IMG/VR virus record: IMGVR_UViG_3300033146_003076
Location: 1-64,000 of that record
From: a virus
Length of the DNA stretch: 64,000 nt
Strand: one strand, 5' to 3'
Below, one piece after another: positions 5,942 through 46,878 of this stretch; within the stretch, counting starts at the first letter, position 1, and every line of letters begins with the position of its first letter. The position numbers were made by a program, and so were the translations under genes. Below the pieces are notes generated by a model. That model was not told where the DNA came from, ran no database searches, and saw nothing but the letters and a program-made list of their open reading frames with translations.

Positions 5942-5950
5942 ATATATCTG

Positions 5951-5977: not shown

Positions 5978-5996
5978 AAATGTTAAGGTTTAAAAA

Positions 5997-6293: not shown

Positions 6294-6331
6294 TTTTTTT
6301 ATAAATATAAAATATGGGATGGTAATAAAAT

Positions 6332-6817: not shown

Positions 6818-6917
6818 GCACATCCTTTTTCCAAAAAAGCAAAAACTAAAAATTCAAATTCACAGACATTTTATGTCTTAATCAAACTAATACAATAGTT
6901 AAAAGGAATTCAATACA

Positions 6918-7295: not shown

Positions 7296-7483
7296 TGTCT
7301 GAAAAAACAGAGTCTCTTTCTTTTGAAAGGACTGTAAAAATTGAGTTAACATCTCAAGCTAGAAAGGTATTAAGTTATACTGATATATCTGAAGAAGATG
7401 TTGTTAATGATTATATAAAAAAAAACAAATTTTCTATTGGTGGACACAATATTGTTGTTTACTTAGAAAATTTAAATAGGTGA
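7295..7483 (+). CDS. Hypothetical protein
   Basis: TAATG translational coupling with the upstream gene. Confidence 0.4.
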
Positions 7484-10407
7484 ATAAAAAAATGGCTGCT
7501 CCTTTAATTACAAGAAATATTGGGGATATAATTCCCTCTGAAGATCACAATGATATAATGCCTTATATTGAGGATGGTACTTATAGAGTTAATACTTTAT
7601 CTTTATCTTTGGGAGGTACTTCTGTTTTAACTTCTTCTTTATTATTAGAAAATGTTACTGTTGGTACTCCTTCTACTGATTTAGAAATAGCGAATAAAGC
7701 TTATGTTGATACTCAAATCTCAGGAGAAGATATTTGGGATAGAACTGGAACAACTGTCACATTTCATTATTCTGGTGACAATTTAAATTTGGGTGCGGGA
7801 AATATTATAACTTCTGGAACTGTTGATACTAGAAATGTTAGTGTTGATGGAAGTACATTAGATACACTTAAAACTAAGACTGATTTCGTTACCGTGACTC
7901 AAGCAGTAAATCTTGATACTATGGAAAGTGATATTACTGCTAATAATGCTAAAATAAGTTATACTGATTCGGCTGCTGTTGGGTTAAATACTACTCATAG
8001 AACAAGTGATGGTAAAAATCATTCAGATGTTGTTGCTAATAATGCTAAAATATCTTATACTGATTCCGCTGCCGTTGGATTGAATACAACTCATAGAGGT
8101 TTAAGTGATAATCCTCATACTGTAACAAAGTCTCAAGTATCTTTAGGTAATGTTCCTAATGTAGATTGTACTAATGCTAGTAATATTAGTTCTGGTACTT
8201 TACCAAGTTCGGTGTTACCACCTGTTGCATTAACTGAAGTTTCTGTTTATGCTGATGAGAGTGCTATGTTAGCAGCTACAACTCAAGAAGGAGACGTTGG
8301 TGTTAGAAGTGATCAAAATAAGTCTTATATGCATAATGGTGGTTCAGCTGGGACTATGGCTGATTGGACTGAGTTACAAACTCCGACTGATAGTGTTTTA
8401 AGTGTTAATGGTGAAACTGGTACTGTTGTTTTAAATCAAGATGAAGTATTGGATGGTTCTACTTATGTTCGAACTGAAAACAATTATACTAATACTGAGA
8501 AAAGTAATTTAAATAATCAAAGTGGTACTAATACTGGTGATCAAGATATAAGTGGCATTACTACTAATGCTTCTGATATTGATGATATTGAAACAAAAAC
8601 AGATTTTGTTACTGTAACTCAAGCAGTAAATCTTGATACTATGGAAAGTAACATTTCCACTAATAATGCTAAAATAAGTTATACTGATGGAACAAAAGTT
8701 GGGTTTATATCTGTTACACAAGCAGTAAATCTTGATACCATGGAAAGTAATATTACTACTAATAATGGTAAAATAAGTTATACTGACGCTGCTGCCGTAA
8801 CATTGAATACGGCTAAAATTACTAATCAAACACATACCGGTGATGTAACTGGTTCTACTGAATTAACAATAGCAGATAATGCTATTACTAATGTTAAAAT
8901 AGCTGATGATGCCGTTGGTCTTAATGAGTTAAGTGCTACAGGTACAGCGTCAAGTTCTAACTTCTTAAGAGGAGATAATACTTGGGCTACTCCTTCTGGT
9001 AGTGGGAATGTTTCTACAAGTGGAACTCCTGTTGATAATGATTGGGCTAGGTTTGTTGGTGCTACTGATATTGAAGGATTATCTGATAGTGAAATGAAAT
9101 CAGCTTTAGGTTTAGTTTCTGGCACAGATTTTTATAGTAAAAGTGCTGTTGATACTTGGAGAGATGGTGTAACTCAAACAGAGATGGGTTATGTAGCTGG
9201 TGTTTCTAGTGATATTCAAACTCAATTAAATAATAAACAATCTACTTTAACTTTTGGTATTTCTGATACTAATGCTGTTGATATCGATAGTGCTAGTGTT
9301 GTTGATAATGATTATGCAAAATTCACTGCTAATGGATTAGAAGGCAGAAGTTATACTGAAGTAAAAACAGATTTAAGTTTAAATAATGTACCTAATGTTG
9401 ATTGTACTAACGCAAGTAATATTACAACAGGTACTTTACCTAGTAGTGTGTTACCACCTGTTGCTTTAACTACTGTTGCGGTGTATGCTAATGAGGGTGC
9501 TATGTTAGCTGCTACAACGGAAGAAGGAGACGTTGGAGTTAGAAGTGACGAAGATAAAAGTTATATGCGTAATAGTGGTTCAGCTGGTACAATGGCAGAT
9601 TGGACTGAGTTACAAACTCCTACTGATAGTGTGTTGAGTGTTAATGGTGAAACAGGAACTGTTGTTTTAAATCAAGATGAAGTATTGGATGGTTCTACTT
9701 ATGTAAGAACTCATAATGATTTAACTGACACTTTGGCTGGGAATATTGCAACTAATAATGGTAAAATAAGTTATACTGATGCAACTGCCGTTGGATTAAA
9801 TACAGCTAAAATTACTAATGCTACCCATACCGGGGAAGTTACTGGTGCTACTACTTTAACTATTGCTGATAATATTATAGATGAAGCAAATTTAAAATTG
9901 GATGAAGCTGCTGTTAATGATTATGTCTTAACTGCTGATTCTAGTAAGACTGGCGGTATGAAATGGGCTGCAGCTGGTGCTGGTGGAAGTGGTACTGCTT
10001 ATACAGTAGAAAGGGTATTAGAGAATGAAATATTTACTAAAACATTTATGCAAATTCCTATCACAGATGAACTTAGTGGTAAAGATGTTAAAGAAGTAAG
10101 ACTAAGTTTAGGTGGATTACCAACTGGTCAAGCTGTTAAAGTGGACGTTCGGAAAAATGGGACAGCTACAACTGATAGTATATTTACAGGGGATGTTCCT
10201 ATTGAAATTGCTACTACTCAAACTGCTACTAATGGTGTGTACCAAAGTGGTTGTGATATAAGTGGTAGTACAACAGGTTCTGCTGGAACTACAATAGATT
10301 CTGCAAGAGATACTTTAGCTGCGGATGATGTATTGTGGGTAATAATTTCACAAGTAGGAAGTACTTTAACAGGTAGTGACTTAAATGTCCAGGTGGTAAT
10401 TAATTAA
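7480..10407 (+). CDS. Long fibre protein with internal repeats
   Basis: 975 aa and T/S/D/N-rich, with fibre motifs ([50 protein letters not shown]). The start is probably the ATG at 7492. Confidence 0.8.
8149..9711 (+). repeat. Duplicated ~109-codon block in the fibre gene (8149-8475 and 9385-9711)
   Basis: [13 protein letters not shown]...[38 protein letters not shown] occurs twice. Confidence 0.9.
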
Positions 10408-10408
10408 A

Positions 10409-11725
10409 ATGAATATAAGAACTAATTTAGAAGCTGAATATCTTTTTAATGGTAATGCTAATGATACTTCTGGTAATGGTAATAATGGTACTGTCACTGG
10501 TGCTACTTTAACTACTGATAAGTTTGGTAGATTAAATAGAGCTTATAGCTTTACTGGTACAAGTGGAGTAGACCAAGATATTATAGAAACAGATTTTACA
10601 TTTGCGACAGGTGATAAAACTGCTTCCTTTTGGTTTAAAACATCCCACACTGGTGCGTATCAACAAATGATGGCATCTAATTCGTTTGTAGGTAGTGCCG
10701 ATACTGGAATGGTAATTTTAATTACTTCTACAAATTATTTGGCTGTTTACATTGGTAATGCTGGTGGATCATCAGAACAATATTTAGACGCTAGTATTAA
10801 TGAAATTGTTACAGATAATGAATGGCATTTTGTTACAGCAACATTAAGTGGTACAACTTTATCATTAAATCTTGATAATGAACATTTTAATAGTTCTAGC
10901 ACAACTTCCGAATCAGAAGTTCAAACATACCCAGTTTCGTTTGGTGCGTCAACACAATCTACTAAATCATTTCCTTATACTGGACAATTAGCTTCACCTA
11001 TGCTTTGGTCAAGAGCATTATCAGCAGATGAAGTAACTCAGTTATATAATGATACAAAAACACAATACTCTTTATTCGATGATTGTGAATTATATTTAGA
11101 CTTTAAAGGTAATGCTAAAGATTGTAGTGGTAATGGTAATGATGGAACAGTTACAGGAGCTACTCTTACAACAGACCATTTAGATATAGCAAACCAAGCT
11201 TATGATTTTAACGGAAGTAGTTATTATATTGATTGTGGTGGAATAAGTACAGTACAAAGTATTAGTATTTGGATAAACCCTACAAGTGATATAACCACTT
11301 CCTCTGCCAATGGTGGAATTTTCGAAATGAGTGCGGGGAATGTATTATATTGTGGTGCTTATACTAGTGCTATACCTAACGAAATTTTAACCCTTCGTGC
11401 TGATAGTAATAAATATATATACTGGCAATCTTCCCAATTCACAGATAGTAAAATACCTGGTGGTGAATGGACTCATTTAGCTATAACTTTTCCAACAACT
11501 TCAACCGCTATATTATATGTTAATGGTGTTGCTAAAACTGCTAGTTATTATGATTCTCCTGTTGTTGATACAAATTGGGATGCTTTTTTAATTGGCGGGG
11601 GGAGTTACTATTTCAACGGTAAAATAGCTTCACCTATATTATGGTCCAGAGCTTTATCAACAGATGAAGTAACAAAATTATACGATTTAACAAAACATAA
11701 ATACATATATAAAAATGGGAATTAG
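10409..11725 (+). CDS. Tandem LamG/concanavalin-like domain virion protein
   Basis: Two units of F.GNA.D.SGNGN.GTV.GATLTTD...W.H/F...RALS.DEV..LY. Confidence 0.85.
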   Translation: MNIRTNLEAEYLFNGNANDTSGNGNNGTVTGATLTTDKFGRLNRAYSFTGTSGVDQDIIETDFTFATGDKTASFWFKTSHTGAYQQMMASNSFVGSADTGMVILITSTNYLAVYIGNAGGSSEQYLDASINEIVTDNEWHFVTATLSGTTLSLNLDNEHFNSSSTTSESEVQTYPVSFGASTQSTKSFPYTGQLASPMLWSRALSADEVTQLYNDTKTQYSLFDDCELYLDFKGNAKDCSGNGNDGTVTGATLTTDHLDIANQAYDFNGSSYYIDCGGISTVQSISIWINPTSDITTSSANGGIFEMSAGNVLYCGAYTSAIPNEILTLRADSNKYIYWQSSQFTDSKIPGGEWTHLAITFPTTSTAILYVNGVAKTASYYDSPVVDTNWDAFLIGGGSYYFNGKIASPILWSRALSTDEVTKLYDLTKHKYIYKNGN

Positions 11726-12365
11726 TCAAGACGATAATTTAAAATTGTATCTACCTATGAATGAAGGTAGTGGAACCACTTGTAATGATTACAGTGGAGA
11801 AGGTAATAATGGAACTATAACTGGTGCTAGTTGGACAAGTAAGAAGGATAGAGATAATGTACTGAGCTTTGATGGGACTGATGATTATGTTAATTGTGGC
11901 ACTAATATTTTGACAACAGCGGCAACATCTTTTAGTCTTTGGATAAAAAAATCTAGTGACACTATGAAACCATTTGCAGGATTAAAAATAGGGGGTGCTG
12001 GTGGTTCTATTTTTTATTGGGGTTCCACAGATGGAGGAACTGGTAGTGCTATGATGGGGTTTAGGGGTGAGCACGAGATTTATACCCCAACTAACTCATT
12101 AACTTCAGGGGTGTGGCAACATCTTATGTTTATTTATGATGGAAACAATGATGATTCTGTTACAAGTTACAAAATATATATTAATAATATAAATCAAATA
12201 TTAACCAGAAGGGGAGGTCTCATAACGGGGTCTACAACAACAAATTTTATTGGCTCAGAAAATGCAGGTTCCTTTGATGGTATTATTTCAGACGTACAAA
12301 TCTTTGACAAAGCTTTAACACAAGAACAAATAACACATATTTATAAAACAACTTACAGAGAATAA
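11715..12365 (+). CDS. LamG domain protein
   Basis: EGSGTT..DYSGEGNNGT, FDGTDDYV, WQHL, FDGIISDVQIFDKALT. Confidence 0.85.
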   Translation: MGISQDDNLKLYLPMNEGSGTTCNDYSGEGNNGTITGASWTSKKDRDNVLSFDGTDDYVNCGTNILTTAATSFSLWIKKSSDTMKPFAGLKIGGAGGSIFYWGSTDGGTGSAMMGFRGEHEIYTPTNSLTSGVWQHLMFIYDGNNDDSVTSYKIYINNINQILTRRGGLITGSTTTNFIGSENAGSFDGIISDVQIFDKALTQEQITHIYKTTYRE

Positions 12366-12377
12366 GGAGGAACAAAA

Positions 12378-12638
12378 ATGGCAACAAAACAAGAAGAATT
12401 TAATGCTTTTTTAGAAGCACAAGAAGTAGAAGGGTACAAATTAGGGGATATAGAAGGTACACCTGAAGCTGATATGATTAAATATACAGAACTTAAAATA
12501 GGAGTTAAACAAGAAGCTGCTAAATTAGAAGCGTTTAATAAAGTATGGGATTTAAAGTTTCAAGAATTATCAGAAGAACAAGACGCTGCTAGAATAGCTT
12601 TAGGAAAAGAAAAGCAAACAGCACAAGATTTATTGTAA
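12378..12638 (+). CDS. Hypothetical protein (possible fibre chaperone)
   Basis: AGGAGG RBS, helical, follows the LamG genes. Confidence 0.4.
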   Translation: MATKQEEFNAFLEAQEVEGYKLGDIEGTPEADMIKYTELKIGVKQEAAKLEAFNKVWDLKFQELSEEQDAARIALGKEKQTAQDLL

Positions 12639-12680
12639 ATAATTATTTTTTTATAATTTATTTTTGTCAAGGAAGAGAAA

Positions 12681-13406
12681 ATGTTAATAGAAAACTATAA
12701 TGAAAATATAACAAAAGAGTTAAGTAGTAGTAATATCTTAGAAGAGACTGATATGTTACTTTTGGAAAAGAATATGGGTTCCATAAAACATGCCTTAAAA
12801 CATTCACAGATTTTTAGGACTGATGTTGAGGCTAGAGTTAGTGTTTTAAATGATATAAAACATCCTGATGCTGATAGTAAATATTGGCAATCTATGCGTG
12901 AATTAAAAGTTCAAAGTGACCAAATGTTTTATTTAAATTTTGATTATAAAGAAAAGATTATTGATCAAGAAGAACTTGAACATTTCCTTTTAACAAAAGA
13001 TTATGAAAACAATTTTGATAAAAAGCGTGATAAGATAAAACTTGAAAAAGTTAAATATGAATTATTACAGATGGAATTAACAGCAAAAGACAGAATTCGT
13101 GAAATTGATATGTGGAGTAAGATTCAAAAAGAATTAGAACCTGTAATGAAATATAGTAAAGATGATGTTAATGAGCATCAATTATTAAGTTATGGTTCAA
13201 GGTTTATTAATGAATATATTACTTCCATAAATATGAAATCTAAACCTAGCCCTTCAGAAGCAAGAAATGCCCAGGGATTACTTTTAACCACTCTTAGCAA
13301 AATAGAAAAAGATGGAAAAATGGATTTGTTATGGGATAAATCATCTATTGAAGTGAGAGATTTTTTAATTAAAAATAATTTGGTTAAAAATAAAACAATT
13401 AGTTAA
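12681..13406 (+). CDS. Conserved phage coiled-coil protein
   Basis: RVSVLND.KHP...SKYWQ.MRE motif followed by a coiled coil. Confidence 0.45.
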   Translation: MLIENYNENITKELSSSNILEETDMLLLEKNMGSIKHALKHSQIFRTDVEARVSVLNDIKHPDADSKYWQSMRELKVQSDQMFYLNFDYKEKIIDQEELEHFLLTKDYENNFDKKRDKIKLEKVKYELLQMELTAKDRIREIDMWSKIQKELEPVMKYSKDDVNEHQLLSYGSRFINEYITSINMKSKPSPSEARNAQGLLLTTLSKIEKDGKMDLLWDKSSIEVRDFLIKNNLVKNKTIS

Positions 13407-13424
13407 TTATATTAAGGAGTTATT

Positions 13425-14033
13425 ATGTGTATAAAATTATGTAAAGTTAAACATTGTAATCATAAACATTATGCAAAAGGTTACTGTGCCAAACATTGGA
13501 AACAAATAAATAGGTATGGAAAAATATTAAACAGAACTAGATTTGATTTAAATGAAATAATTAATTACAAAAAACATGCTGAAATAGTTATTTATAATAA
13601 ACATAAAAAAGGTTGTGAACCCAAAGAAAAATGCAGGTCTATTATTGATTTAAAAAATGTTGATAAAGTTAAATCTTTTAAATGGTCATTAACAGCTTTG
13701 GGTTATGTAAAATGTGTTAATCAAAGAATATGGTTACATCGATTAATTACCACTTGCCCAGGTGGAAAGTATGTAGATCATATAAATCATAATCTTTTAG
13801 ATAATAGAAATATAAATTTAAGAATAGTTACTATCCAACAAAATAATCAAAATAATAGTGTATCAAAAGGATATAGTTGGGATAAGTCTAAAAAAAGTTT
13901 TGAAGTGTATATTAATATTAATGGAAGGAAAAAATATATTGCCTTAACAAAAACAGAAAAAGAAGCGATAATATTAAGAAAAAAAGCTGAAATAAAATAT
14001 TTTAAGGAATATAGGTATAAAAAAATAGAATAA
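13425..14033 (+). CDS. HNH homing endonuclease with C-terminal AP2-like domain
   Basis: N-terminal C..C..GYC.KH zinc motif, LHRLI...VDHINHNLLDNR..NLR, and an AP2-like KGYSWDK tail. Confidence 0.85.
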   Translation: MCIKLCKVKHCNHKHYAKGYCAKHWKQINRYGKILNRTRFDLNEIINYKKHAEIVIYNKHKKGCEPKEKCRSIIDLKNVDKVKSFKWSLTALGYVKCVNQRIWLHRLITTCPGGKYVDHINHNLLDNRNINLRIVTIQQNNQNNSVSKGYSWDKSKKSFEVYININGRKKYIALTKTEKEAIILRKKAEIKYFKEYRYKKIE

Positions 14034-14135
14034 AAAATATGATAGTAAAAGATTAGATGTGAACAACTGTATGGTTTGGTTGGATGTTGTTTGTGTTGAC
14101 ATAAACTTTACTTAATAAAAAAAGGTAAAAATAAA

Positions 14136-14426
14136 ATGGCACAATATTCAGCAGTATATGGAACAGCTCGTTATGGTATGTCTCGTTATGGCGTACTTTT
14201 AAATGAGCTTGAAGGAGAAGTTTGGATCAAGAAAAAAGTAATTCAAACTATATCTGGCAGTGTTTTTATTAAGGGGAAAAATGAAGAATCTATTTCTGGT
14301 TCTGTTTATATATTCGGTTCCGGAGAACATATTTCAGGTTCTATTTATATTTGTAATCCTGAACTTCCTTTGATGATAGATTTAGATTTAGAACCGCCAC
14401 AGCTTTTGTCTGTGTCTATAATGTGA
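14136..14426 (+). CDS. Virion protein
   Basis: YG.ARYG.SRYG start and ISGSV(F/Y)I repeats. Confidence 0.4.
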   Translation: MAQYSAVYGTARYGMSRYGVLLNELEGEVWIKKKVIQTISGSVFIKGKNEESISGSVYIFGSGEHISGSIYICNPELPLMIDLDLEPPQLLSVSIM

Positions 14427-14439
14427 GGAAAAATAAAAA

Positions 14440-15312
14440 ATGGCAGTACTTTTAAAATGGAAAAAACCATCCAGTGAATCTAACTATAATTCAGTTTATA
14501 TTTATAGGTCTGATACTGAGTTGGGTGTTTATGCAGAGGTTGGAAATCAACCTATTTGTGATGCCAGTTATTATGATATGGCTGGTTCTGGTGAATCTTG
14601 GTATAGAATTAGATTTTATGATAGTACTTCTGCTACATATTCTGATTATTCTGATGCTATGCAGGGTGGAGACTTTTATGCTTATTGTTCTCTTAATGAT
14701 ATTCGTGTTGCTACCAATATCACTTCAAATCAGGTTAATGATACAGATTTAGCCCAGATAATGAAATTTTCTTGTACTCAACTAAATAATGATATAAATA
14801 TTTTGGTTAATGATGAGAAAGTTTTAGAATTAGATGTTGAACGTGATAATACTATTAATGGTACAAATGTTACTTTTTATACTGTTAATCGTTTTATTGG
14901 TGATAAGAATAATGATTTCATTGTTAATACTGATGATGTTGTTGCTTATACTTTGAATGCTGATGGTACTCGTTTGAATTATGCAATTTCTAGTATTGAT
15001 GCTAATTTAGGTAAAATTGTTTTAGGTATTGCTCCTCCTTCTGGAGAACAATTATATTTTACTTATGTTTATGCTATGCGTAGAGTTGATGTTGTTGATT
15101 CTATGATCCGTGATGCTGCAATTTTATGTACTGCAATGTGGTGTTATCGTAAATTAAATACTGGTAAAGCTACTCGGTTTAAGATGGGCAGTTTAACAGT
15201 TTTCCGTGATATGAATTCCCCCAAAGATTTTAGATTGCTTTATTATGAAGCAATTACTAATATTAATGCTGGAGTTATTGCAAATATTGCTGAAACAGAT
15301 TTAATTATATAA
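14440..15312 (+). CDS. Head-tail adaptor with N-terminal Fn3-like domain
   Basis: N-terminal LKW...YIYRS...WYRIRF, then YCSLNDIR...IRDAAIL, typical of gp6-like adaptors; neck position. Confidence 0.55.
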   Translation: MAVLLKWKKPSSESNYNSVYIYRSDTELGVYAEVGNQPICDASYYDMAGSGESWYRIRFYDSTSATYSDYSDAMQGGDFYAYCSLNDIRVATNITSNQVNDTDLAQIMKFSCTQLNNDINILVNDEKVLELDVERDNTINGTNVTFYTVNRFIGDKNNDFIVNTDDVVAYTLNADGTRLNYAISSIDANLGKIVLGIAPPSGEQLYFTYVYAMRRVDVVDSMIRDAAILCTAMWCYRKLNTGKATRFKMGSLTVFRDMNSPKDFRLLYYEAITNINAGVIANIAETDLII

Positions 15313-15331
15313 GGAGAAAGGTATTGTAAAA

Positions 15332-15694
15332 ATGGTAGGAATAATATGTGATGGTACAATGATTGATGATATAATAGATGAATTTAGTATCCCTATAATT
15401 TGTCGTGTTGTTTCTAAATCTTTTGTTGATGAGTATGGTGATGCATCTGAATCTTATAAAGATTACAGTATTAATGTTGTGGTTCAATCTTGGTCTGCTG
15501 ATACTCAAGAGGTTAAAGAAGGAATGTTTCATGCTGGTGCTTTAACTTTAACTTTTCGTCAGGATGATCAATTTCTTGCTGTTGAAGGTAATAAGGTAAA
15601 ATACTTGGATGTTTGGTATAAGATTAATCGTGTAATTAAACAACCTATTGCTGGCACTTTATATTATGTGTATTGTTTACTTAAGAAGGGGTAA
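15332..15694 (+). CDS. Head closure protein
   Basis: Size, position and DEYGD...GNKVKY..VWYKI..V pattern. Confidence 0.55.
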   Translation: MVGIICDGTMIDDIIDEFSIPIICRVVSKSFVDEYGDASESYKDYSINVVVQSWSADTQEVKEGMFHAGALTLTFRQDDQFLAVEGNKVKYLDVWYKINRVIKQPIAGTLYYVYCLLKKG

Positions 15695-15705
15695 TTTATT
15701 ATAAT

Positions 15706-16074
15706 ATGAAAAAAGACATTTTGTTTTTTGTAATTTTAATTTCTCTACTTTTTTTCTTTTTTTATTCAACTTTTTCCAATATTTCTTATCTTGAGAAGGA
15801 GGTTAGGCATGAAGTTGATTCTGTTAAAAAGTTTTATTTTTATAATCATACTGATGATGGCCTTTTCCGTAATAAATCTGAATTAATTAAGTTTGGGGGG
15901 GATTGTGAAACTTGGGCTTTGTATTATAATTCTATATTTAGTGAGAAATATTATACTTCTTTGTTAGTGTTTCCTTTTGATGAATATAAGAATCATGCTG
16001 TTTTATCTGTTTCTGATGGTTCTGAATATTGTATAATTAATCAGGTGTATTATGATTGTTATCAGATTGAATGA
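15706..16074 (+). CDS. Membrane-anchored transglutaminase/papain-like protein
   Basis: N-terminal TM segment, GGDCETWA and NHAV (Cys-His pair). Confidence 0.45.
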   Translation: MKKDILFFVILISLLFFFFYSTFSNISYLEKEVRHEVDSVKKFYFYNHTDDGLFRNKSELIKFGGDCETWALYYNSIFSEKYYTSLLVFPFDEYKNHAVLSVSDGSEYCIINQVYYDCYQIE

Positions 16075-16077
16075 ATA

Positions 16078-16105
16078 GGAAGTTTTATAAATAAATTTAA
16101 TCATA
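16078..16105 (+). promoter_or_regulatory. Late promoter, copy 2, heading the tail operon
   Basis: 22-bp identity with 3393-3414, with GGAA upstream in both copies. Confidence 0.7.
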
Positions 16106-16218
16106 ATATACTATATAGATATAGTAATATAATCTATGTTAATCACATTTAATTGTGATTTATTATTATAAGAGATGATTGTTGTTGTCTCTTTTATACC
16201 GTTGTTGCGGAGCTTAGA

Positions 16219-16701
16219 ATGACAAATAAAACTATTACTTCAAAAATACATGTTTTAGGTCTAAATCCTTCTTCTCTTTACAGCGACATTTACAAAATAT
16301 TTTATAATGTTTTAAAACGTAATGTTTGTGTTGGCACCAAGCGTGTTTGGTTCAGTGCATTTCCTGATATTGATATTGATAATAAAGATGATTATCCTTT
16401 TTTCATTATTGATTCCCCTTCCTTAGAAGATAGTAAATTCACACAAATCCGTGAAAAAATAAATACTAGTATTGATATTGAGGTTAGTACAACAAGTTCT
16501 CGAACAAGAGATGAATATGCTTCAGATATTTTATATCAATTAAAATTAAATAAACATTATTTACGAAAACTTGGTATTACAAAATTAAAATTAGTTGGTG
16601 ATGATTCCAGTATGATTATGCGTGATGAAATTAAGATTCATACAAAATCATTAAGTTACACTTTTGAATTTGTTCAAACCAAGGTGTCACCATCATGGTA
16701 A
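16219..16701 (+). CDS. Tail terminator-like protein
   Basis: FPD...YPFFII pattern and position. Confidence 0.5.
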   Translation: MTNKTITSKIHVLGLNPSSLYSDIYKIFYNVLKRNVCVGTKRVWFSAFPDIDIDNKDDYPFFIIDSPSLEDSKFTQIREKINTSIDIEVSTTSSRTRDEYASDILYQLKLNKHYLRKLGITKLKLVGDDSSMIMRDEIKIHTKSLSYTFEFVQTKVSPSW

Positions 16702-17195
16702 CTTTACCCCCTGTTGGTTTAACAATAAAAACTAGCGTTAAAAAAATAAAAGGTAAACGTATTTTATTACCTTCAACTTGGAGAAAGTTTAGTGAAGAAT
16801 TGATGGATGATTATTCCAAAAAAACTTTACGTGCTATCAGGAAATACGCACCAAAGGGCCAGACTGGTTATTTCAAAAGTAATATTAAAATTGATAAAGG
16901 TGGAAAATTAATTAAAACTATAAGTTTTGGTGGAGTTCCATGGGTTGAGGCTTTAGAAAAAGGTTGGAAAGGTCATTGGATTCCACGTTATTGGGTGGAC
17001 CAATATACTAAATTTCCTGGAAATGCTCGTTTCAAACAATTAAGTAAAGCCGAAATTGCTAATACTGGCGGTTGGTTTTATTCAAATTCAGTAAATTATA
17101 AACATAAAGGTTTTATCAAAAAGGGTTTTCTTGCTGGTCAAAAGAACTTCCAAGGAACTGTTGATAAATCTTTTAACAAAACAATAAAACGGTGA
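16695..17195 (+). CDS. HK97 gp10-like tail completion protein
   Basis: AP...TGYFKSNI...VPW...LEKG...FIKKG. Confidence 0.55.
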   Translation: MVTLPPVGLTIKTSVKKIKGKRILLPSTWRKFSEELMDDYSKKTLRAIRKYAPKGQTGYFKSNIKIDKGGKLIKTISFGGVPWVEALEKGWKGHWIPRYWVDQYTKFPGNARFKQLSKAEIANTGGWFYSNSVNYKHKGFIKKGFLAGQKNFQGTVDKSFNKTIKR

Positions 17196-17452
17196 TTATA
17201 ATGACAAAGTATAAGATAACAAATGTTTCACGTTTAACAACACGAATTAAGTATGGTGATAATGATTTTGAGTTTATAAAAAATAAAGAAGTTATAGAGA
17301 CAGATAAAAAACCACTAAATAAAACATGTGGTATAACGATTGAAATCGTTCCTGAACAGATTATGAAAGAAGAGAAGAAAATTAAAGTTTCTTTTAAAGA
17401 GACTGTAAAAAAAGAATTAAAAAAAGAAAATAATAATCAGGAGGATGATTAA
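17192..17452 (+). CDS. Hypothetical protein
   Basis: ORF in the tail operon. Confidence 0.4.
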   Translation: MIIMTKYKITNVSRLTTRIKYGDNDFEFIKNKEVIETDKKPLNKTCGITIEIVPEQIMKEEKKIKVSFKETVKKELKKENNNQEDD

Positions 17453-17454
17453 AT

Positions 17455-18114
17455 ATGGGAGTAAGTGATTTAACAGTAGAACAATGGACTGAGATCGCAT
17501 TTGTAGAAATTGCAGATAATGCGGAAACCCCTAATGTGGTTCAGTTTGGTACAATAACAGATACATTAGATATTTCAATTGGTACACGAGATGTAGAGGC
17601 TATAGCTTTATTAAGTTCTGGTAGAGTTGCAAAGTTTACACCGGAAGATGTAACAGAAATAACATTAGAATTATATCCAATTGGTGTAACATCAATAGGA
17701 TCTTCACCAAATGGTATTTTAGCTTGGTATTGGGGACAAAATCCTGGAACTAATGCTGGAAGGAATGAATTTGGTAGAAAATATTTTAGGGTTAGTATGT
17801 TATGGACTAATACAATTACAGATTTGACCTCAGTTCCTTTGGTAAGTGCTGGGCAGGAGACTATTGGTGATTATTTGAGAATGTCATTTTGGATGAGTTA
17901 TATGACTGATGCTAAGATGGATTTCACAGATGATATTTTAAAACAAACTGTAACATTTAAATGTTTACCATTTGACCGTGCTGGTGCTTCAAGAATAGTT
18001 TTCGAAGAATACTATGTTGATGGTTCAACAGTAGAGTATATGCCTGTTATGCCCGCCTTTATCAGTGGAGTTGCACCAACAGATCCAACTACTTGGGCGA
18101 ACCCAACTCCTTAA
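17455..18114 (+). CDS. Major tail tube protein
   Basis: GGAGG RBS, 219 aa acidic beta-rich protein, followed by a terminator like that after the MCP, upstream of the chaperones and tape measure. Confidence 0.65.
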   Translation: MGVSDLTVEQWTEIAFVEIADNAETPNVVQFGTITDTLDISIGTRDVEAIALLSSGRVAKFTPEDVTEITLELYPIGVTSIGSSPNGILAWYWGQNPGTNAGRNEFGRKYFRVSMLWTNTITDLTSVPLVSAGQETIGDYLRMSFWMSYMTDAKMDFTDDILKQTVTFKCLPFDRAGASRIVFEEYYVDGSTVEYMPVMPAFISGVAPTDPTTWANPTP

Positions 18115-18116
18115 AC

Positions 18117-18145
18117 ATTTATTTTTTTATTTTTTATTTTTATTT
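18117..18145 (+). terminator. Oligo(T) terminator
   Basis: ATTTATTTTTTTATTTTTTATTTTTATTT. Confidence 0.65.
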
Positions 18146-18162
18146 CAAAGTGAGGTTGTATT

Positions 18163-18501
18163 ATGGAAGAAGAATTTCAAGATATAAAGAAGAGAATATT
18201 TAAACATAAAAACTCAGAGGAACTATTTCTAAAACGTGTTCCTGTAGGTACTGTTAAATTGTTTAAAGCTTATGCGAACGATGAGTTTGCTGGTGATTAT
18301 GGATTATGCCTTAAAAGTATGACTGATGAATTATTAGTTAAACCTCCTATTTATATGAATTTACAAGAACAATTATTTAAATTATTTGAAGAACTTGAAG
18401 AATTAAAAAAGAAGATTGAAGGTATTGACTCTCCTGAAACTGAGTCAAATAATATTGTTGAACGTGTTAATGGCGTTAGAATGATAAAAAGAAAAGATTG
18501 A
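18163..18501 (+). CDS. Hypothetical coiled-coil protein
   Basis: ORF with GAGG RBS. Confidence 0.4.
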   Translation: MEEEFQDIKKRIFKHKNSEELFLKRVPVGTVKLFKAYANDEFAGDYGLCLKSMTDELLVKPPIYMNLQEQLFKLFEELEELKKKIEGIDSPETESNNIVERVNGVRMIKRKD

Positions 18502-18899
18502 GGATTAAAAAAATGGGAATAGATATTGAAAAATTTAAAAGACACTGTAATATGGGTGTTGATGTTATTTTAGAAAATGATGATGGTGCGAAGGATACTT
18601 TTAAATTAAAACCTTTAAATCCAAAACAGTTAGTACAATTTAATATTTTGGCTGAAGGTTATGAAGCTGGAACTTTATCTGATAAAGATACAGAGTCTAT
18701 GTTTGATTTATTTACAGATGTTGTATTAAATTCATTTCCAGAATTAGACAAATCACTTGCCGAAAATTTCGCATTAAATAATTTAATTAATTTTATGAGT
18801 ATTATGGACAAATTGGCTCCTAAAGTTGATAAAAAGAAAATGGATCAATTAAAAAAAATGAAAGCATTACAACAATCTAAAGTTGCTTCCAATGAATGA
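18498..18899 (+). CDS. Tail assembly chaperone-like protein
   Basis: Lies between the tube and tape measure genes; F.LKPL motif. The start is probably the ATG at 18513. Confidence 0.5.
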   Translation: MRIKKMGIDIEKFKRHCNMGVDVILENDDGAKDTFKLKPLNPKQLVQFNILAEGYEAGTLSDKDTESMFDLFTDVVLNSFPELDKSLAENFALNNLINFMSIMDKLAPKVDKKKMDQLKKMKALQQSKVASNE

Positions 18900-19134
18900 A
18901 TTAACTAAAAAGTCAATTATGGGTCGTGTTTTAGGTGGAAATAACAATTCCCCTAAAGATGTTGCTGACCAATTTATCCAAATCCACCATATTTTTATGA
19001 AAGAGTATGGTTGGATACACCCTGATGTATTTTATTCATTACCTATTGATTTCATTAATAATATGGTAAAAGAAATAAATAATAGTCGAAAAGAAGAAAA
19101 TAAGAAAAATAAAAAAAAAGGTAGAAAAAGGTAA
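18892..19134 (+). CDS. Second tail chaperone-like protein
   Basis: ATG overlaps the upstream stop; MKEYGW..P..FYSLP pattern, directly before the tape measure. Confidence 0.5.
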   Translation: MNELTKKSIMGRVLGGNNNSPKDVADQFIQIHHIFMKEYGWIHPDVFYSLPIDFINNMVKEINNSRKEENKKNKKKGRKR

Positions 19135-20841
19135 ATGGCAGGAATTAAAGCAAAAGCAGATCTTGAAATAACTCTTAAAGTTAAAAATGAACTTTTAAAT
19201 AAACAGTTAGATCTAACTAAAAAGAAATTAGAACAATTAATTAAAACTAATGACAAATTAGGTCGTACTCGTCCCAGAACCCAAACTGGCAAAGACGCAA
19301 AAAAAACATCCCAAGATAAAAACGAAGAAAAGATATTGGCTGAAAAACGAAAAATTGCTAATATGGAAGTACAAAATGCAAGTTATATAGAAAGTAAAAA
19401 AAAGAAAAGAGCTCAAGCAGAACAGCAAAGAGTTCTTAAACCTGAAACCAACAAAAAAGATGCAAAACAACAAGAAAATAATTTTCAATCTATGCGTAAT
19501 GAATTAATGTTAAGTGGGATTTCTGAAAAGAAAGCTATTTCTGCAACAAATACTCTTAAAAAAAATATGAGTGATTTGGGTTTCACTATGAAAAAAAATG
19601 GGGATTTTTTTAATGAGTCTACTAACCAAACAATTGGTTTTAATAAAGCTGCTGGTTATCTTTCTCGTAGTGTAATGCCAAAATTCCATGGGCAATTCTT
19701 ATCTTTAATGTTTATTGGTCAAGGAATGTCTGCTACTTTTGGAGGTATGATTCAAAGTGCCTTACAATCAACAGGTATTTTTGAAGCATTTGGAGGTGTA
19801 TTACAAAGTATTTTATTACCTGTTTTGATGCCATTAATTATGAGATGGTTGCCAAAATTAATGAAGTGGTTAGAATCACCTGGTGCTAAAGAGTTTGCTG
19901 CACAAGTTATTATTATGGGTTCTGCTTTAGGTACCACATTGTCTATGATTTCACAAGTTGTATTATTATTGGGTTCTTTAGGATTTAGTTTAAAAGATAT
20001 AGGATTATGGTTTAAGAATGGCCCCTCAGTTATTTCTAGTTTTTTTAAAGGATTAAAAAATAGTTGGATTCTTATTAAGACTGCTTTTAAAAGTAAAGGT
20101 TTATTAGCTGGTTTAAAATTAGGATTTAAATCTGTTGGTCAAAGTATTGCAAAATGGTTGCCTTTAATAAATGGTGTTGTTGGTGGTTTAACTATTTTTT
20201 GGGGTATTTTAACTGACAATATTTGGCCTGTTTTAAAAGGGATAATTTTGGTTATTGGTGCTATTTTAACTGTTATTTTTGGTTGGCCTGCCGCTCTTGC
20301 CGCTGCGATTGTGGGTGTTGTTTTGATGTTTGATAAATTTGCTTTATTGAGAGGAATAATTTATTCTATTACAGCCGCCAGTGTAAGTTGGTTATCTGCA
20401 TTAGAATTAATTGGTCAGGCAGTTGGTAAAATATTTAAAGGAGATTGGAAAGGATTAAAAGAGGTTTTTAGTATGGACAATATGTTAAATAATACTTTGT
20501 CCGGAAAATTAGTTAAATCTGCCGCTTATCAGTTTCAAGCTGTTCAAAAAGAAGGTATTGGTGCTAAATCTACTGAAATAGATTTACAAGGGAATCTTAA
20601 AAATATACCTAAAATGGCTAGTGGTGGAATTGTTAATGACCCTACTTTAGCCGTTATTGGAGAAGCCGGCCCAGAAGCAGTTATTCCTTTAAGTTCTAAT
20701 AATAGTAATTTTGCTGGAAATAAAGAAATATATTATAATCCTACTATTAATGTTAATGTTAGTGGTGGTTCTTTTAATGAGCAGGATTTAGCCGATAAAA
20801 TAAATAAAGCATTATATGATGCGTTACAAAGAGGTATTTAA
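19135..20841 (+). CDS. Tape measure protein
   Basis: Amphipathic/hydrophobic helical repeats and the C-terminal MASGGIV..PTLAVIGEAGPEAVIPL motif. Confidence 0.9.
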   Translation: MAGIKAKADLEITLKVKNELLNKQLDLTKKKLEQLIKTNDKLGRTRPRTQTGKDAKKTSQDKNEEKILAEKRKIANMEVQNASYIESKKKKRAQAEQQRVLKPETNKKDAKQQENNFQSMRNELMLSGISEKKAISATNTLKKNMSDLGFTMKKNGDFFNESTNQTIGFNKAAGYLSRSVMPKFHGQFLSLMFIGQGMSATFGGMIQSALQSTGIFEAFGGVLQSILLPVLMPLIMRWLPKLMKWLESPGAKEFAAQVIIMGSALGTTLSMISQVVLLLGSLGFSLKDIGLWFKNGPSVISSFFKGLKNSWILIKTAFKSKGLLAGLKLGFKSVGQSIAKWLPLINGVVGGLTIFWGILTDNIWPVLKGIILVIGAILTVIFGWPAALAAAIVGVVLMFDKFALLRGIIYSITAASVSWLSALELIGQAVGKIFKGDWKGLKEVFSMDNMLNNTLSGKLVKSAAYQFQAVQKEGIGAKSTEIDLQGNLKNIPKMASGGIVNDPTLAVIGEAGPEAVIPLSSNNSNFAGNKEIYYNPTINVNVSGGSFNEQDLADKINKALYDALQRGI

Positions 20842-42954: not shown

Positions 42955-45783
42955 TTATATAGTTTTGTAAAATCCTGGTCTTGGTCTTATTATATCTCCT
43001 CTATGGACTAAAATATTAATTATCCCATCAAAATCTATTTCTTTTTCTCCTGTTAAGTTACTCCATTTCTCTAATACTTCTTCATGTGGACTTATTCCAA
43101 TTTCATTTTTACATGAGTCTATACATTCCCTTAATACATACATCTTATCTCTTTTCTTTTTAGGGACAATTTGTTCTATTGCATTAATATTTAATCTTCC
43201 ATCGGCAATATCATTAGTCATTATACCTTGTGCTTTAAATGATTCAACAAATATTTCTATTGCTTCTTCTGCGTCTTGTACTTCTATAATTTTACTTAAC
43301 CTTGATTTCGCACATGCTGTTGAAACTCTTATTATATTTGTAATTAATCTACTAGAAAAATATGCTTGTTCATCACCTGGATTTGCTGGTTTTGTTAATT
43401 TTATATATTCATTAGTTATATGTTTTATTGCTTCATTACTCATAACTGGTTTAACATAATTTTTAACATAAGCTAAATATTTTAATATTTTCTCATTGTT
43501 ATAATTAACATCAACCTCATCATCTTCATTATACTTATTGAATATTGTTTTGATTATTTTTCTTTGATGTTCTTCTGTTTCTATTGCATGCATTGGAAAT
43601 ACTAAATCAAACCTATCCATAAAGTCTTTAGGGAACCCAATTTGTTTCCATACTGCTTCATACTTATCAAAGACTCTATTAACTGGGTTTGCTGTTGCTA
43701 AAACTGTTGTTTCTGTTCTTATTATACTATGAATATTTGCTTTGTCAAATGGTACTTCTAAGTCCATTAATGCATTATTAAGTTTAGCCATATCATCTTT
43801 TTCTAATTTATCACATTCATCAAGAACAACTAAACTTCCTGTTGATAATGCTAACACCCCTGCTTCTAATACCCAACATCCTAATTCTTCATCTTTTGTT
43901 ATTGCCGCAACTAATCCAACTCCTGTTGTTGATGATCCACTAGATAATCTACTATTAGGCAGATAATGTAATGAACATTTTGCTAATTTTGTTTTACCAG
44001 AATTATGCGTGATTACACCATTATCTAAAATAAAATTATGGGTGTCCGGCACAATTAAGTCCCACATTTCTTTTTTTTCCTTGCTCTTGTATAATTGTGT
44101 AATTTTGCATGGCATGATTGACAAAGAATTGTTAAATTGTCCAGAACATTGTTTTTGTTGTTCCCATCTATGTGATGAATAACCAAGTCCATTTTTGTAT
44201 TGTTTTTTCCACAAGTGTGACAAATCCAGTACAAATATTCTTTTGCTATTTTTACATACTTTTTTCTGTTTTTGCTTAAACCCACGCTTAACCCATTTTT
44301 GTAAGCCGGATTTTTTTCTCCTTCTTTTCCTTTGAATTTGTATAAATTTTGAGAAATTCCTAAACTTACTTGTTCTTTGAAGGACCTCATAGGTATGCCC
44401 ATCATTTTTAACCTTCTTATTATTACATGATGATCGTGCCCCACTATTTTTCCTATTTGTGTTGCAGATAATTGTTTTTCTTGATATAACCTTTTTATTA
44501 AGTTTAAATCCAAATTTACCCACATATTGTTTTTTTCTAATGTTTGATCTCGTTGCATATTTTTCATCATTTTTAACCACCCTTAATAATAAATCTGTTA
44601 TTTTTAATTCATTTGTTTTTATTTCCATGATGATCTTATTTCTTATTACTATCCATATATGGTCTTTTGAACATTTTAATTCCTCTTTCTCTGTACAAAT
44701 AATATATACATCTTTTTGGCCTGTGCATTTCGGGATGCACATACTTTCAACTTTTTCAAATTTATCATTAATTGTTAAACAAGTTTTTGCTTCTGATATT
44801 TTTTTTAATCCATCTTTTGTTTGGATTAATTGGTCTTTTAACATACATCCTGGATTTCCACATATTAATACATGGATTAAACCTCTTTCTTCTAATTTAT
44901 TATTGATGTATAAATGTTCTCCACCAATTAGCTGTAAGAATAATGCTTTTTTAATTATATCATGTCCATAAATAGTTCCATAAATCTCTTGGATAATATT
45001 TTCTCTAAAGTTTGTTTGTGTTGACATTAACTTTATTTCTTCAATATCATCTTCAGATAATTTTACAGTTCCTATTCCTTCTTCAATCATTTCTATGTTA
45101 TTTGCTTCAACATATTTAATTTGATCTACACTATTATCTTTTCTTGGTTTTTCTTTTAATATTCCTGTAACTTTAATTTTTTTACTTGGTTGAACATTTT
45201 TATCTATGTTCTCATGACATAATGAACCTTTCAATGATATTAACATTGTTCGTGGTTTTTGTGCAGGGTCAATCATATTAATATCTTCTTCGATAACTAA
45301 CTTTTGTAAATCTTCTAAATCTCTTGTTGTTTCTTTGAATCTTGTTTTATTTCCACATTGACATATTTGTGGTTTTGTTATTTTTTCAGAGAGTTGTACG
45401 AGAGGTATTGTATTTCCACATGAAGGACAATCATAGTGTATTACTTTTGGGAAATGTGTAACTTCTGTTGTCTTTCTTATATATCCTGTTATAGATACTA
45501 ATTTTGAAACATCTTTTGCTCTTAGTTTCCAAATATCTTTATGTTCTGACTGTGGTATGTTTGTAAATCTGATAGAAGTATTTTTCTTTCCGGATATACC
45601 TTCGTATGCTATTTCACATACTTTAATTGCTTCTTCAAAATCATCTAAGATATAATCTCCTAGTTCTGGTGATACTTGGATAATTTTCCCAAAATCCACG
45701 TATAAAGAATTATTTATTATTACATTATCACTTTTATTAAAAAAGGTTTTTGCTGAATCGATTAGTTTTGCTATTTCACTCAT
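42955..45783 (-). CDS. mcm: MCM replicative helicase containing an intein
   Basis: Zn finger CPSC..CQC, Walker A GNPG|SGKT split by the intein, GVGL.A, LEAG.L, Walker B VVLDECDK, ATANP and the DRFD arginine finger. Confidence 0.95.
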   Translation of the reverse strand: MSEIAKLIDSAKTFFNKSDNVIINNSLYVDFGKIIQVSPELGDYILDDFEEAIKVCEIAYEGISGKKNTSIRFTNIPQSEHKDIWKLRAKDVSKLVSITGYIRKTTEVTHFPKVIHYDCPSCGNTIPLVQLSEKITKPQICQCGNKTRFKETTRDLEDLQKLVIEEDINMIDPAQKPRTMLISLKGSLCHENIDKNVQPSKKIKVTGILKEKPRKDNSVDQIKYVEANNIEMIEEGIGTVKLSEDDIEEIKLMSTQTNFRENIIQEIYGTIYGHDIIKKALFLQLIGGEHLYINNKLEERGLIHVLICGNPGCMLKDQLIQTKDGLKKISEAKTCLTINDKFEKVESMCIPKCTGQKDVYIICTEKEELKCSKDHIWIVIRNKIIMEIKTNELKITDLLLRVVKNDEKYATRSNIRKKQYVGKFGFKLNKKVISRKTIICNTNRKNSGARSSCNNKKVKNDGHTYEVLQRTSKFRNFSKFIQIQRKRRRKKSGLQKWVKRGFKQKQKKVCKNSKRIFVLDLSHLWKKQYKNGLGYSSHRWEQQKQCSGQFNNSLSIMPCKITQLYKSKEKKEMWDLIVPDTHNFILDNGVITHNSGKTKLAKCSLHYLPNSRLSSGSSTTGVGLVAAITKDEELGCWVLEAGVLALSTGSLVVLDECDKLEKDDMAKLNNALMDLEVPFDKANIHSIIRTETTVLATANPVNRVFDKYEAVWKQIGFPKDFMDRFDLVFPMHAIETEEHQRKIIKTIFNKYNEDDEVDVNYNNEKILKYLAYVKNYVKPVMSNEAIKHITNEYIKLTKPANPGDEQAYFSSRLITNIIRVSTACAKSRLSKIIEVQDAEEAIEIFVESFKAQGIMTNDIADGRLNINAIEQIVPKKKRDKMYVLRECIDSCKNEIGISPHEEVLEKWSNLTGEKEIDFDGIINILVHRGDIIRPRPGFYKTI
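44002..44847 (-). mobile_element. Intein (282 aa) in the MCM P-loop
   Basis: Starts with Cys (CMLKDQLI), has block B CSKDH, block F WDLIV..THNF and terminal THN, followed by Ser+1. Confidence 0.92.
44055..44570 (-). CDS. HNH homing endonuclease encoded in the +1 frame inside the intein
   Basis: HTH (LY.EKQLS..QIGKIVG...IRRL...GI), NUMOD-like KNPAYKNG, and CHTC...HHIDGNNKNN..DNL..LCQSCH..H. It has its own RBS-like AGGGTGG, ATG and stop. Confidence 0.85.
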   Translation of the reverse strand: MMKNMQRDQTLEKNNMWVNLDLNLIKRLYQEKQLSATQIGKIVGHDHHVIIRRLKMMGIPMRSFKEQVSLGISQNLYKFKGKEGEKNPAYKNGLSVGLSKNRKKYVKIAKEYLYWICHTCGKNNTKMDLVIHHIDGNNKNNVLDNLTILCQSCHAKLHNYTRARKKKKCGT

Positions 45784-45930: not shown

Positions 45931-46854
45931 TTATTTTGTTTTTACATTATGATATTTTAATAATTTACCCATATTACCATCACACCAAACATTTAATATA
46001 GTATTATGAAGTTTAGGGTTTTCAATTTTCATTCTTTGAAATCTGTTTGGTTCTTTTTCTAAGTGAACTCCAAAACCACAACCAACACATCCTGTACGTT
46101 TTGCTTTTGTTGTTTCCCATTTACCTTCAACTTTAATTATTTCTCCATAAGCATCACAATAATCTAGATCATATTGTTTAATATATTCTAGTATGTCCTG
46201 TTCTGTCCAGAAACCTAAAGGAGTACATTGTCCTTTTTCCCAATCGATACACCCATTTTGAAGATATTGTTTTTTTCTTTGTTGTCCGTCACTAGCCATG
46301 GTTGCAATAAATCCTTTCATGCCTGATTTTTTATTAAATCTTTTTATTGGTTCTTTCTTTAAATAATGGCAGCACATATCACTTACTTCTATATCTGAAG
46401 TAATTATATCTTTCCATTTATTAGATATTTTAAACATTGTTTTACTTCCATCCTTCATTATCCCTGTTATTAACCTACTTCTTAAGTAATCTGACTTTGT
46501 ATGTTTTGCTTGATAAATAAAATGTGCTTGTTGTTTAGTTGGGAATGGTATACCATATTTATTCCACACTTCCAACATACTCTTTTTTGGTTTTAAAACA
46601 ATGTTTGCTTTTTTTAATGCGTGATCTCTTGTGTGTAGTTCAGTTCCTGTATCTACAAATAATACTTTAACATCTGGAAAAAAGGATTTTATTAAATGTA
46701 ACATAACTTCCGAATCTTTACCCCCACTATAAGAGATATAAACCTCTCCATTATATTCTTGATAGAACTTTCTAATCTTAATTAACGAAAGATTAATCTT
46801 TACATTTAAAGATAATTTCTGTCTTTGTTCTAATTGCCATTTTTCCATCTTCAT
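45931..46854 (-). CDS. PAPS reductase family (adenine-nucleotide alpha-hydrolase) protein
   Basis: SYSGGKDS, VDTG.E, CC..LKKEP, PLGFWTEQDI, RTGCVGC. Confidence 0.88.
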   Translation of the reverse strand: MKMEKWQLEQRQKLSLNVKINLSLIKIRKFYQEYNGEVYISYSGGKDSEVMLHLIKSFFPDVKVLFVDTGTELHTRDHALKKANIVLKPKKSMLEVWNKYGIPFPTKQQAHFIYQAKHTKSDYLRSRLITGIMKDGSKTMFKISNKWKDIITSDIEVSDMCCHYLKKEPIKRFNKKSGMKGFIATMASDGQQRKKQYLQNGCIDWEKGQCTPLGFWTEQDILEYIKQYDLDYCDAYGEIIKVEGKWETTKAKRTGCVGCGFGVHLEKEPNRFQRMKIENPKLHNTILNVWCDGNMGKLLKYHNVKTK

Positions 46855-46878
46855 TATACCCAATCTATATACAACCTG

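Follow-up and report, generated by a model that had tools for sequence, protein, structure and literature searches.

Can an intein be mobile when its homing endonuclease is written in another reading frame of the same DNA? The question is raised by a 64,000-nucleotide stretch of viral DNA, positions 1 to 64,000 of IMG/VR record IMGVR_UViG_3300033146_003076, which is called the window below. Here an MCM helicase gene carries an intein, and a gene for a helix-turn-helix (HTH) plus HNH endonuclease is nested within that intein in the +1 frame. The whole record is 78.9 kb long with about 28% G+C, and its source is probably an uncultured tailed virus with an archaeal host. The MCM relatives found in a phage collection came, every one, from archaeal viruses, with an identity of 30% or less. 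An earlier reading of the letters (the original prediction) had taken the locus for a splicing-competent MCM intein overprinted with a free-standing HNH gene; at the level of sequence analysis this interpretation was supported. The architecture is real, selected and recurrent. Its general kind was already described in 2025–2026 for other nucleases; what is added here is the HNH enzyme, the +1 phase, the MCM host gene, the archaeal setting and the family context.

An intein and a second gene in one stretch of mcm

The following features were delineated; a slash in a motif marks the insertion point.

42955..45783, minus strand: MCM helicase gene, 942 codons, one unbroken frame through the intein (ORF list and Pfam)
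44848..45783, minus strand: N-extein, ending ...VLICGNPG, the first half of Walker A
44002..44847, minus strand: intein, 282 codons, MCM residues 313–594, splitting Walker A as GNPG/SGKT
44569..44847, minus strand: N-terminal splicing lobe, intein residues 1–93 with blocks A and B, all-beta, predicted score in the local distance difference test (pLDDT) 82–93
44125..44568, minus strand: host-frame linker, intein residues 94–241 (148 residues), the out-of-frame shadow of the HNH gene
44002..44124, minus strand: C-terminal splicing lobe, intein residues 242–282 with blocks F and G, pLDDT 71–93
42955..44001, minus strand: C-extein, starting SGKTKLAKC (second half of Walker A), with Walker B, arginine finger region, lid and stop codon
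44055..44570, minus strand: HTH+HNH endonuclease gene, 171 codons plus TAA (44055–44057), +1 frame relative to MCM
44376..44507, minus strand: HTH DNA-binding region, about residues 22–65, with weak Pfam HTH-type matches
44097..44222, minus strand: HNH catalytic and zinc-finger core, Pfam HNH at residues 117–159
44577..44583, minus strand: Shine-Dalgarno-like AGGGTGG, 6 nt upstream of the HNH ATG, encoding R-V-V in the MCM frame
44583..44585, minus strand: TAA closing the HNH frame, four codons upstream of its ATG

The MCM open reading frame (ORF) matched the Pfam families MCM_OB, MCM P-loop, MCM_lid and Intein_splicing (PF14890; 48.4 bits against a cut-off of 35.8). The intein starts with the nucleophile Cys1 (CMLKD...), has S-K-D-H as block B and W-D-L-I-V-P-D-T-H-N-F as block F, and ends with ...DNGVITHN before Ser+1. 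This end is invariant across our alignment of relatives (A4), and the block B pattern S-x-[DE]-H is kept in the aligned loci L009, L013, L017 and L011. The window's N-lobe is homologous to the N-lobes of three fusion proteins (P0012, P0017, P0047) and of loci L002–L019. A hidden Markov model (HMM) of the C-lobe, IntC, matched at 1e-23, and the C-lobe start, E-M-[WYF]-D-L, is kept in all relatives, the mini-intein L011 included. The coordinates, the interrupted P-loop and the intact splicing blocks were thus found as first described. MCM homologues without the intein (P0155, P0159 and others) share 43–48% identity and read uninterrupted GSPGTGKT / GSPGSGKS at the insertion point. In the alignment to P0155 and P0159, excision of the insert would join GNPG to SGKT and restore Walker A.

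The frame-0 intein was modelled from a five-sequence alignment. At a depth that gave pLDDT above 80 in the lobes, the block means over linker residues 94–241 were only 28–43. Foldseek searches with the confident parts of the model returned exclusively inteins or HINT domains, and the alignments bridged the insert. About 40 solved inteins matched at probability 1.00, with a target-normalised template-modelling score of up to 0.79; they include NpuDnaB (4o1r), the Ssp DnaB mini-intein, gp41-1 and PhoCDC21-1 (6rpq). The linker contains about 28% lysine plus arginine with a net charge of about +39, and the frame-0 translation over the HNH region gave no Pfam domain match, in line with the basic, motif-free centre noted originally. 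The model gives the host-frame product a HINT fold with a low-confidence basic linker that is probably disordered.

Counted from the MCM start, the ATG of the nested gene has an offset of 1213 nt, which sets the +1 phase; this ATG coincides exactly with the N-lobe's end, where endonucleases are canonically inserted. Its product matched Pfam HNH (PF01844; 25.1 bits against a cut-off of 21.4) and the PHROG HNH families (3e-14 to 1e-12). In a representative library of 1.8 billion proteins, 4982 homologues were retrieved at E ≤ 1e-3, the best of them free-standing proteins of 150–285 residues aligned over the full length. Residues C117, C120, H132, H133, N145, C150, C153, H154 and H158 occupy columns that are invariant or at least 90% conserved in a 33-member family alignment, and all invariant family residues (CxxC, HH, N, CxxCH, H) are present in the window protein. 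The HTH region aligns to HTH_38-type regions of the homologues. A single-sequence AlphaFold model was poor (mean pLDDT 49.8) and had confident helices at 22–56; sequence matches in the PDB were weak (McrA, 0.09; the HNH 5h0m, 0.006 with a profile). Pfam, PHROG and the family alignment agree with the claim of a complete HTH+HNH gene, and both the upstream TAA and the ribosome-binding-site (RBS)-like AGGGTGG, which had also been pointed out, are present. A canonical in-frame HNH intein was considered and ruled out: the HNH lies in the +1 frame, TAA closes that frame four codons upstream and frame 0 is domain-free.

Stop avoidance and selection in the two frames

Is the second frame maintained, or did it stay open by chance? 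We kept the HNH protein fixed, redrew its codons from window or MCM-gene usage, and counted the stops that appeared in the host frame. Over the HNH gene, 21 stops were expected in the MCM frame with window usage and 15 with MCM-gene usage. None was observed, and 0 of 20,000 resamples were stop-free. The chance argument of the original prediction holds, and in a stronger form than claimed. Stop avoidance was also found at five independent loci of the same layout (L009, L013, L017, L025 and L026, introduced below), for which 17–26 stops were expected each; in each of the six loci, 0 host-frame stops contrast with an expectation of 15–26, and 0 of 5000–20000 resamples were stop-free. With the host-frame protein fixed instead, 4.6–6 stops were expected in the HNH frame, and the probability of finding none was about 5e-5 to 6e-4.

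The codon choice reveals how the host frame is kept open. In this phase a host-frame stop arises only if the third base of an HNH codon is T and the next codon begins with AA, AG or GA. The window has T at 0 of its 64 stop-sensitive junctions, while 47% of window codons overall end in T. Pooled over the six loci, third-base T was found at 0 of 421 sensitive junctions as compared with 219 of 645 others, and third-base C increased from 8% to 25% at the sensitive ones. Every T-to-C change at a third codon position is synonymous, so an open host frame requires no change to any HNH residue. Judged from these counts, the double open frame is real, selected and not an indel artefact.

Substitutions were then compared by frame, using Nei–Gojobori (NG86) counts on HNH-codon alignments for six locus pairs. 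The proportion of nonsynonymous differences (pN) was below that of synonymous differences (pS) in the HNH frame of all six pairs, and pN ≥ pS in the host frame of the same nucleotides; these estimates are rough because pS is saturated in most of the pairs, which are distant. For L013 and L017, pN/pS values of 0.25/0.74 were obtained in the HNH frame and 0.35/0.29 in the host frame. This pattern indicates that the nuclease sequence is conserved, whereas over most of the overlap the intein-frame product is only required to exist. Hence, the claim that both frames are selected stood in part: the HNH amino acids are constrained, but for most of the overlap the intein frame is only kept stop-free. 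The substitution test, like that of stop avoidance, had been proposed with the original prediction.

The last ~20 codons of the overlap are the exception. The first ~23 codons of the C-lobe (44055–44124) overlap the 3' end of the HNH gene, so that the HNH tail runs over the conserved C-lobe start K-x-K-E-x-x-E-M-[WYF]-D-L. The K-T-K-E-E-V-E-M stretch of this segment is shared with L011, which has no HNH. The lysine-rich tails that close all six overprinted HNH ORFs are read from A-rich DNA (a run of A8 in the window, of A9 in L009), and each ORF stops within or just before the E-M-[WYF]-D-L codons. The overlap with the conserved C-lobe start explains both the lysine-rich tails and the A-rich tracts. 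We take the alignment to mean that the intein frame has the upper hand over the last ~20 codons, with slippage as a less likely contributor.

Relatives and known systems

Viral, metagenome and genome collections were scanned with fusion-derived alignments, and N-lobe, HNH and C-lobe HMMs were mapped in each frame, which yielded 20-odd loci. The intein relatives surfaced via N-lobe fusions among the HNH matches; a scan of viral contigs with the single HNH protein gave no match. Alleles in this family are 37–60% identical. Five independent loci have exactly the arrangement of the window, an uninterrupted host frame with the HNH in +1:

L009/L010: MCM, insert at the same Walker A position as in the window (GSPG/SGKS), HNH in +1
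L013 and L017: MCM, insert in the N-terminal zinc finger (FECPS/CG), HNH in +1
L025: Nanoarchaeota genome bin, MCM zinc-finger insert (FECPS/CG), HNH in +1
L026: archaeon bin, MCM zinc-finger insert (FECPS/CG), HNH in +1

Their HNH proteins are 37–44% identical to that of the window. Reading the upstream sequence frame by frame showed that in four loci the HNH frame is shut by stops 0–8 codons ahead of the ATG. The contiguous-type homologues have stops in neither frame; homologues with a broken +1 frame, which had been named as a refutation, were absent among them. The distribution of host-frame stops is bimodal, with 0 in the contiguous forms against 11–52 in the related split forms.

The other relatives are arranged differently. 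The HNH is fused in frame to the intein N-lobe in P0012, P0017 and P0047, and to the C-lobe plus C-extein in P0019 and P0063. In L002:3794-5789, L003:3761-5792 and L012:2526-3843, the gene for a viral AAA-type ATPase is interrupted after GTGKTY, which leaves three ORFs that overlap and each use a different frame: N-extein with N-lobe, a shortened HNH, and C-lobe with C-extein. The HNH ORF of these three loci retains only the C-terminal half of the family. Split layouts before SGKS of P-loop proteins were found in L004:2468-4167, L005:2656-4759, L006:822-2978 (=L007) and L008:2-1608. The HNH of L004 is fused in frame to the N-half, that of L005 is one stop apart, and the others are in the third frame. 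As in the window, most split relatives have the insert ahead of a P-loop SGK[ST]. The 11–52 host-frame stops across the gap in L002, L003, L004–L008 and L012 identify them as genuine fractured genes and not errors. The window is not fractured, its host frame being continuous over 942 codons. In all, at least two MCM sites and other P-loop ATPases harbour the intein+HNH unit, and intein-free MCM homologues exist.

Several further loci were recorded. L011:49-450 is a 134-residue mini-intein of the same family, inserted before SGKS and with no endonuclease ORF; it is a candidate for the uninvaded or the post-loss state. L014:583-2585, L015:140-1241 and L016:3-1588 have the same intein halves around a middle ORF of about 320 codons, whose match to the HNH family is confined to the HTH part and leaves out the nuclease core. 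This ORF may be a different or degenerate endonuclease. The MCM frame of L009:2038-6858 runs open over more than 1600 codons, including the overprinted P-loop intein; two or more further in-frame inserts apparently follow downstream (weak matches to a second N-lobe and C-lobe at 4066–5223, and another long insert after them). L024:1549-4062, on a viral contig with 51% G+C, has a weak HNH-core match in frame with an intein C-lobe, and may be a canonical in-frame HNH intein of a distant relative.

Close homologues of the window MCM also carry inserts: P0156 (968 aa), P0158 (1030 aa) and P0157/P0170 (about 1000 aa). P0156 has a K/R-rich intein at a third MCM site, CQ/CG of the second zinc-finger pair. 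Its frame-0 protein text bears the L-M-S-H-E-V-T signature of an overprinted HNH, a candidate read from the protein only. P0158 has a LAGLIDADG intein at the same P-loop site as the window, and P0157 and P0170 a large insert following ...KASIH. Directly upstream of mcm, the window holds a PAPS-reductase-like gene at 45931–46863 on the minus strand (PHROG 424, 1e-38), with a 41-codon ORF between the two genes.

A phage-intein precedent for the out-of-frame architecture had been suspected, and it exists (bioRxiv 10.1101/2025.01.02.630785; bioRxiv 10.64898/2026.09.14.751524; PMC11855218). In non-canonical inteins of actinobacteriophages, an endonuclease VII-like homing endonuclease lies in frame 3, and antisense LAGLIDADG and Vsr-like ORFs also occur; invasion of the intein by a free-standing endonuclease gene was proposed as the origin, with nucleotide-binding loops favoured (Gosselin, Arsenault & Gogarten, bioRxiv 10.1101/2025.01.02.630785). 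The window shares with them a same-strand, out-of-frame endonuclease ORF between the lobes and an open host frame. It differs in the enzyme and phase (HTH+HNH in +1), in the MCM host gene and in its setting, a probable archaeal virus together with archaeal bins of DPANN type. In the cyanobacterial dnaX intein, a LAGLIDADG ORF is out of frame (+2), and secondary invasion of a mini-intein was proposed (Phillips, DeSimone & Gogarten, bioRxiv 10.64898/2026.09.14.751524); as cited in the preprints, this endonuclease was first noted by Gorbalenya in 1998. There too the endonuclease ORF covers a low-confidence disordered segment, as does the HNH over the window linker, and purifying selection acts on the endonuclease frame while the nonsynonymous to synonymous rate ratio (dN/dS) of the host frame is relaxed or raised. 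In contrast to our family, with alleles of 37–60% identity, the dnaX case is bacterial, LAGLIDADG-type and +2, with many close alleles.

Hidden out-of-frame HNH genes of the ShiLan type are known from mycobacteriophage DNA methylase genes (Arsenault, Gosselin & Gogarten 2025, PMC11855218). They are likewise nested in a host gene with a stop-free frame, and the mode of HNH translation is the question there too. However, the ShiLan insert has no splicing domains, is retained in the protein and had no RBS found, whereas the window insert is a complete intein with an RBS-like motif. In the fractured genes of Dassa et al. (2009, PMC2677866), split-intein halves surround a free-standing endonuclease gene; the endonucleases were GIY-YIG and Vsr-like, and HNH was merely predicted as possible. 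This is the layout of L002, L003, L006–L008 and L012, including the 3' end of the endonuclease overlapping the start of the C-half. By comparison, the window looks like the unbroken stage of the gene-breaking model of Dassa et al.; unlike the fractured genes, its host frame is continuous, which points to a cis-splicing intein. A place within the MCM P-loop and the HINT fold are shared with PabCDC21-1 and PhoCDC21-1 of Pyrococcus (PDB 6rpp, 6rpq; Beyer et al. 2019, PMC6801210), the latter being among our top structural matches. Those are mini-inteins of 164–168 residues with no endonuclease. A full-text literature search, which did not cover every journal, found no MCM or archaeal case of an overprinted endonuclease, and no HNH in this position.

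Proposed expression and mobility, and meaning

With the above results in hand, we consider it likely that the locus is a mobile intein whose homing endonuclease is overprinted as a separate gene. Translation of the mcm mRNA would run in frame 0 across the entire insert. The HINT lobes (residues 1–93 and 242–282), tethered by the 148-residue basic linker, would fold and excise the 282-residue intein, and splicing would rejoin GNPG to SGKT in the Walker A of a 660-residue MCM. On the same mRNA, ribosomes starting at the ATG at 44570 behind AGGGTGG would produce a free 171-residue HTH+HNH protein. This protein may cut or nick intein-less mcm alleles near the P-loop codons, and recombinational repair would then copy intein and nuclease gene into the cut allele.

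Initiation at 44570 is consistent with the local signals. GGTG/GAGG cores occur at the same spacing in 24 of 42 long window ORFs, MCM included, as compared with 7.8% of the internal out-of-frame ATGs, and RBSs of this type are also used by the neighbouring genes. A convincing Shine-Dalgarno sequence precedes the HNH ATG in the window and in L013.

Several results weigh against a mobile, separately translated nuclease. A convincing Shine-Dalgarno sequence is lacking in L009 and L017, so that initiation would be non-uniform, leaderless or driven by an internal promoter. Separate HNH initiation is thus the weakest link of the mechanism. A masking hairpin, such as has been reported ahead of the endonuclease genes in fractured genes, was sought at the HNH start site, and no RNA structure beyond that of shuffled sequences appeared (z = -0.07). 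A word-indexed search with the frame-0 intein returned the window's own protein alone, and since no allele of more than 60% identity was found, recent homing cannot be shown. The N-terminal zinc ribbon carried by L009, L013, L017, L025 and L026 is missing from the window HNH, which could mean reduced DNA binding; several free-standing HNH homologues are also without it. The saturation of pS noted above belongs with these points.

The missing zinc ribbon and the lack of close alleles would also fit a relic, in which the intein still splices and the HNH is an inactive passenger or has been recruited to another viral DNA transaction. No near-identical allele marks a recent spread, and HNH proteins of tailed viruses are generally known to act in packaging as well (discussed in PMC11855218). 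We regard this as unlikely. The HNH ORF is intact with all catalytic and zinc ligands kept, and its frame had pN<pS in every pair that includes the window. An idle ORF of 171 codons would decay fast, and the reverse test gave an expectation of 4.6–6 stops with a low probability of none. An intein-linked role is favoured by the location of the HNH, which is precisely the canonical point of endonuclease insertion.

Programmed frameshifting or transcriptional slippage at the A-runs could instead yield an in-frame HNH intein or an HNH–IntC–extein fusion. The A8 tract lies just before the window HNH stop, tracts of A6–A9 are found in L009, L025 and L026, and there are relatives with the HNH fused in frame to the N-half or C-half. 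However, L013 and L017 have no homopolymer at that place, the HNH frame is closed 0–8 codons upstream of the ATG with no common slippery motif, and the window HNH has its own RBS. The A-rich tract was examined as a slippery site and rejected as the principal explanation, because it encodes the conserved C-lobe segment K-T-K-E-E-V-E-M, which is also present in the HNH-less L011. Recoding is therefore highly improbable.

We give almost no credence to an artefact, in which an in-frame HNH domain was shifted out by two sequencing or assembly indels in A-rich runs. Such runs do flank the HNH ORF (A5 near 44571–44575, A8 near 44075–44082), and in-frame HNH fusions to one intein half exist (P0012, P0017, P0047, P0019, P0063), but two errors would leave the MCM frame unselected and filled with about 15–21 stops, and there are none. 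The same +1 relation with an upstream-closed HNH frame in five other independent assemblies completes the exclusion of compensating indels, the alternative named at the outset. Equally negligible is a functional split, with MCM made from two trans-spliced pieces and an incidental open frame: true splits, with the two halves on either side of the HNH, are found among close intein relatives (L002, L003, L006, L008, L012), and an ATG immediately precedes the window C-lobe (E-M-W-D-L) as in the split forms, but the N-half ends in no stop, no RBS-like motif precedes the C-lobe ATG, and 171 stop-free codons against 15–21 expected stops, across six loci, cannot be incidental.

Beyond the overprinted homing endonuclease of the window, a wider reading is quite possible, although we hold it tentatively: one intein/HNH lineage of DPANN-type archaea and their viruses may keep every stage of endonuclease capture, with the +1 overprint as a long-lived selected state and the unit having moved among the MCM Walker A, the MCM zinc finger and other ATPase P-loops. 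The overprint would be stable because host-frame stops are avoidable by synonymous T-to-C changes alone. The stages would be represented as follows:

Mini-intein: L011, 134 residues
+1-overprinted contiguous intein: window, L009, L013, L017, L025, L026
HNH fused to one intein half: L004, P0017, P0047, P0019, P0063
Fractured genes with split inteins: L002, L003, L006–L008, L012

If true, this lineage would provide a naturally occurring series on which the 'splicing first, endonuclease later' model and that of gene breaking could be tested, and the contiguous, fused and split relatives are material for how split inteins arise. The nested gene is missed by gene callers, so that the intein seems large and endonuclease-free, and both intein surveys and virus annotation under-count such elements. 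As the window copy has a recognisable RBS, it is a convenient construct for the question of how nested endonucleases are translated. The predicted 148-residue unstructured basic linker inside a working intein would interest intein engineers. Shifted-frame endonucleases in inteins reach beyond actinophages and cyanobacteria, and an overprinted HNH is now known from the replicative helicase gene in archaea and in a probable archaeal virus.

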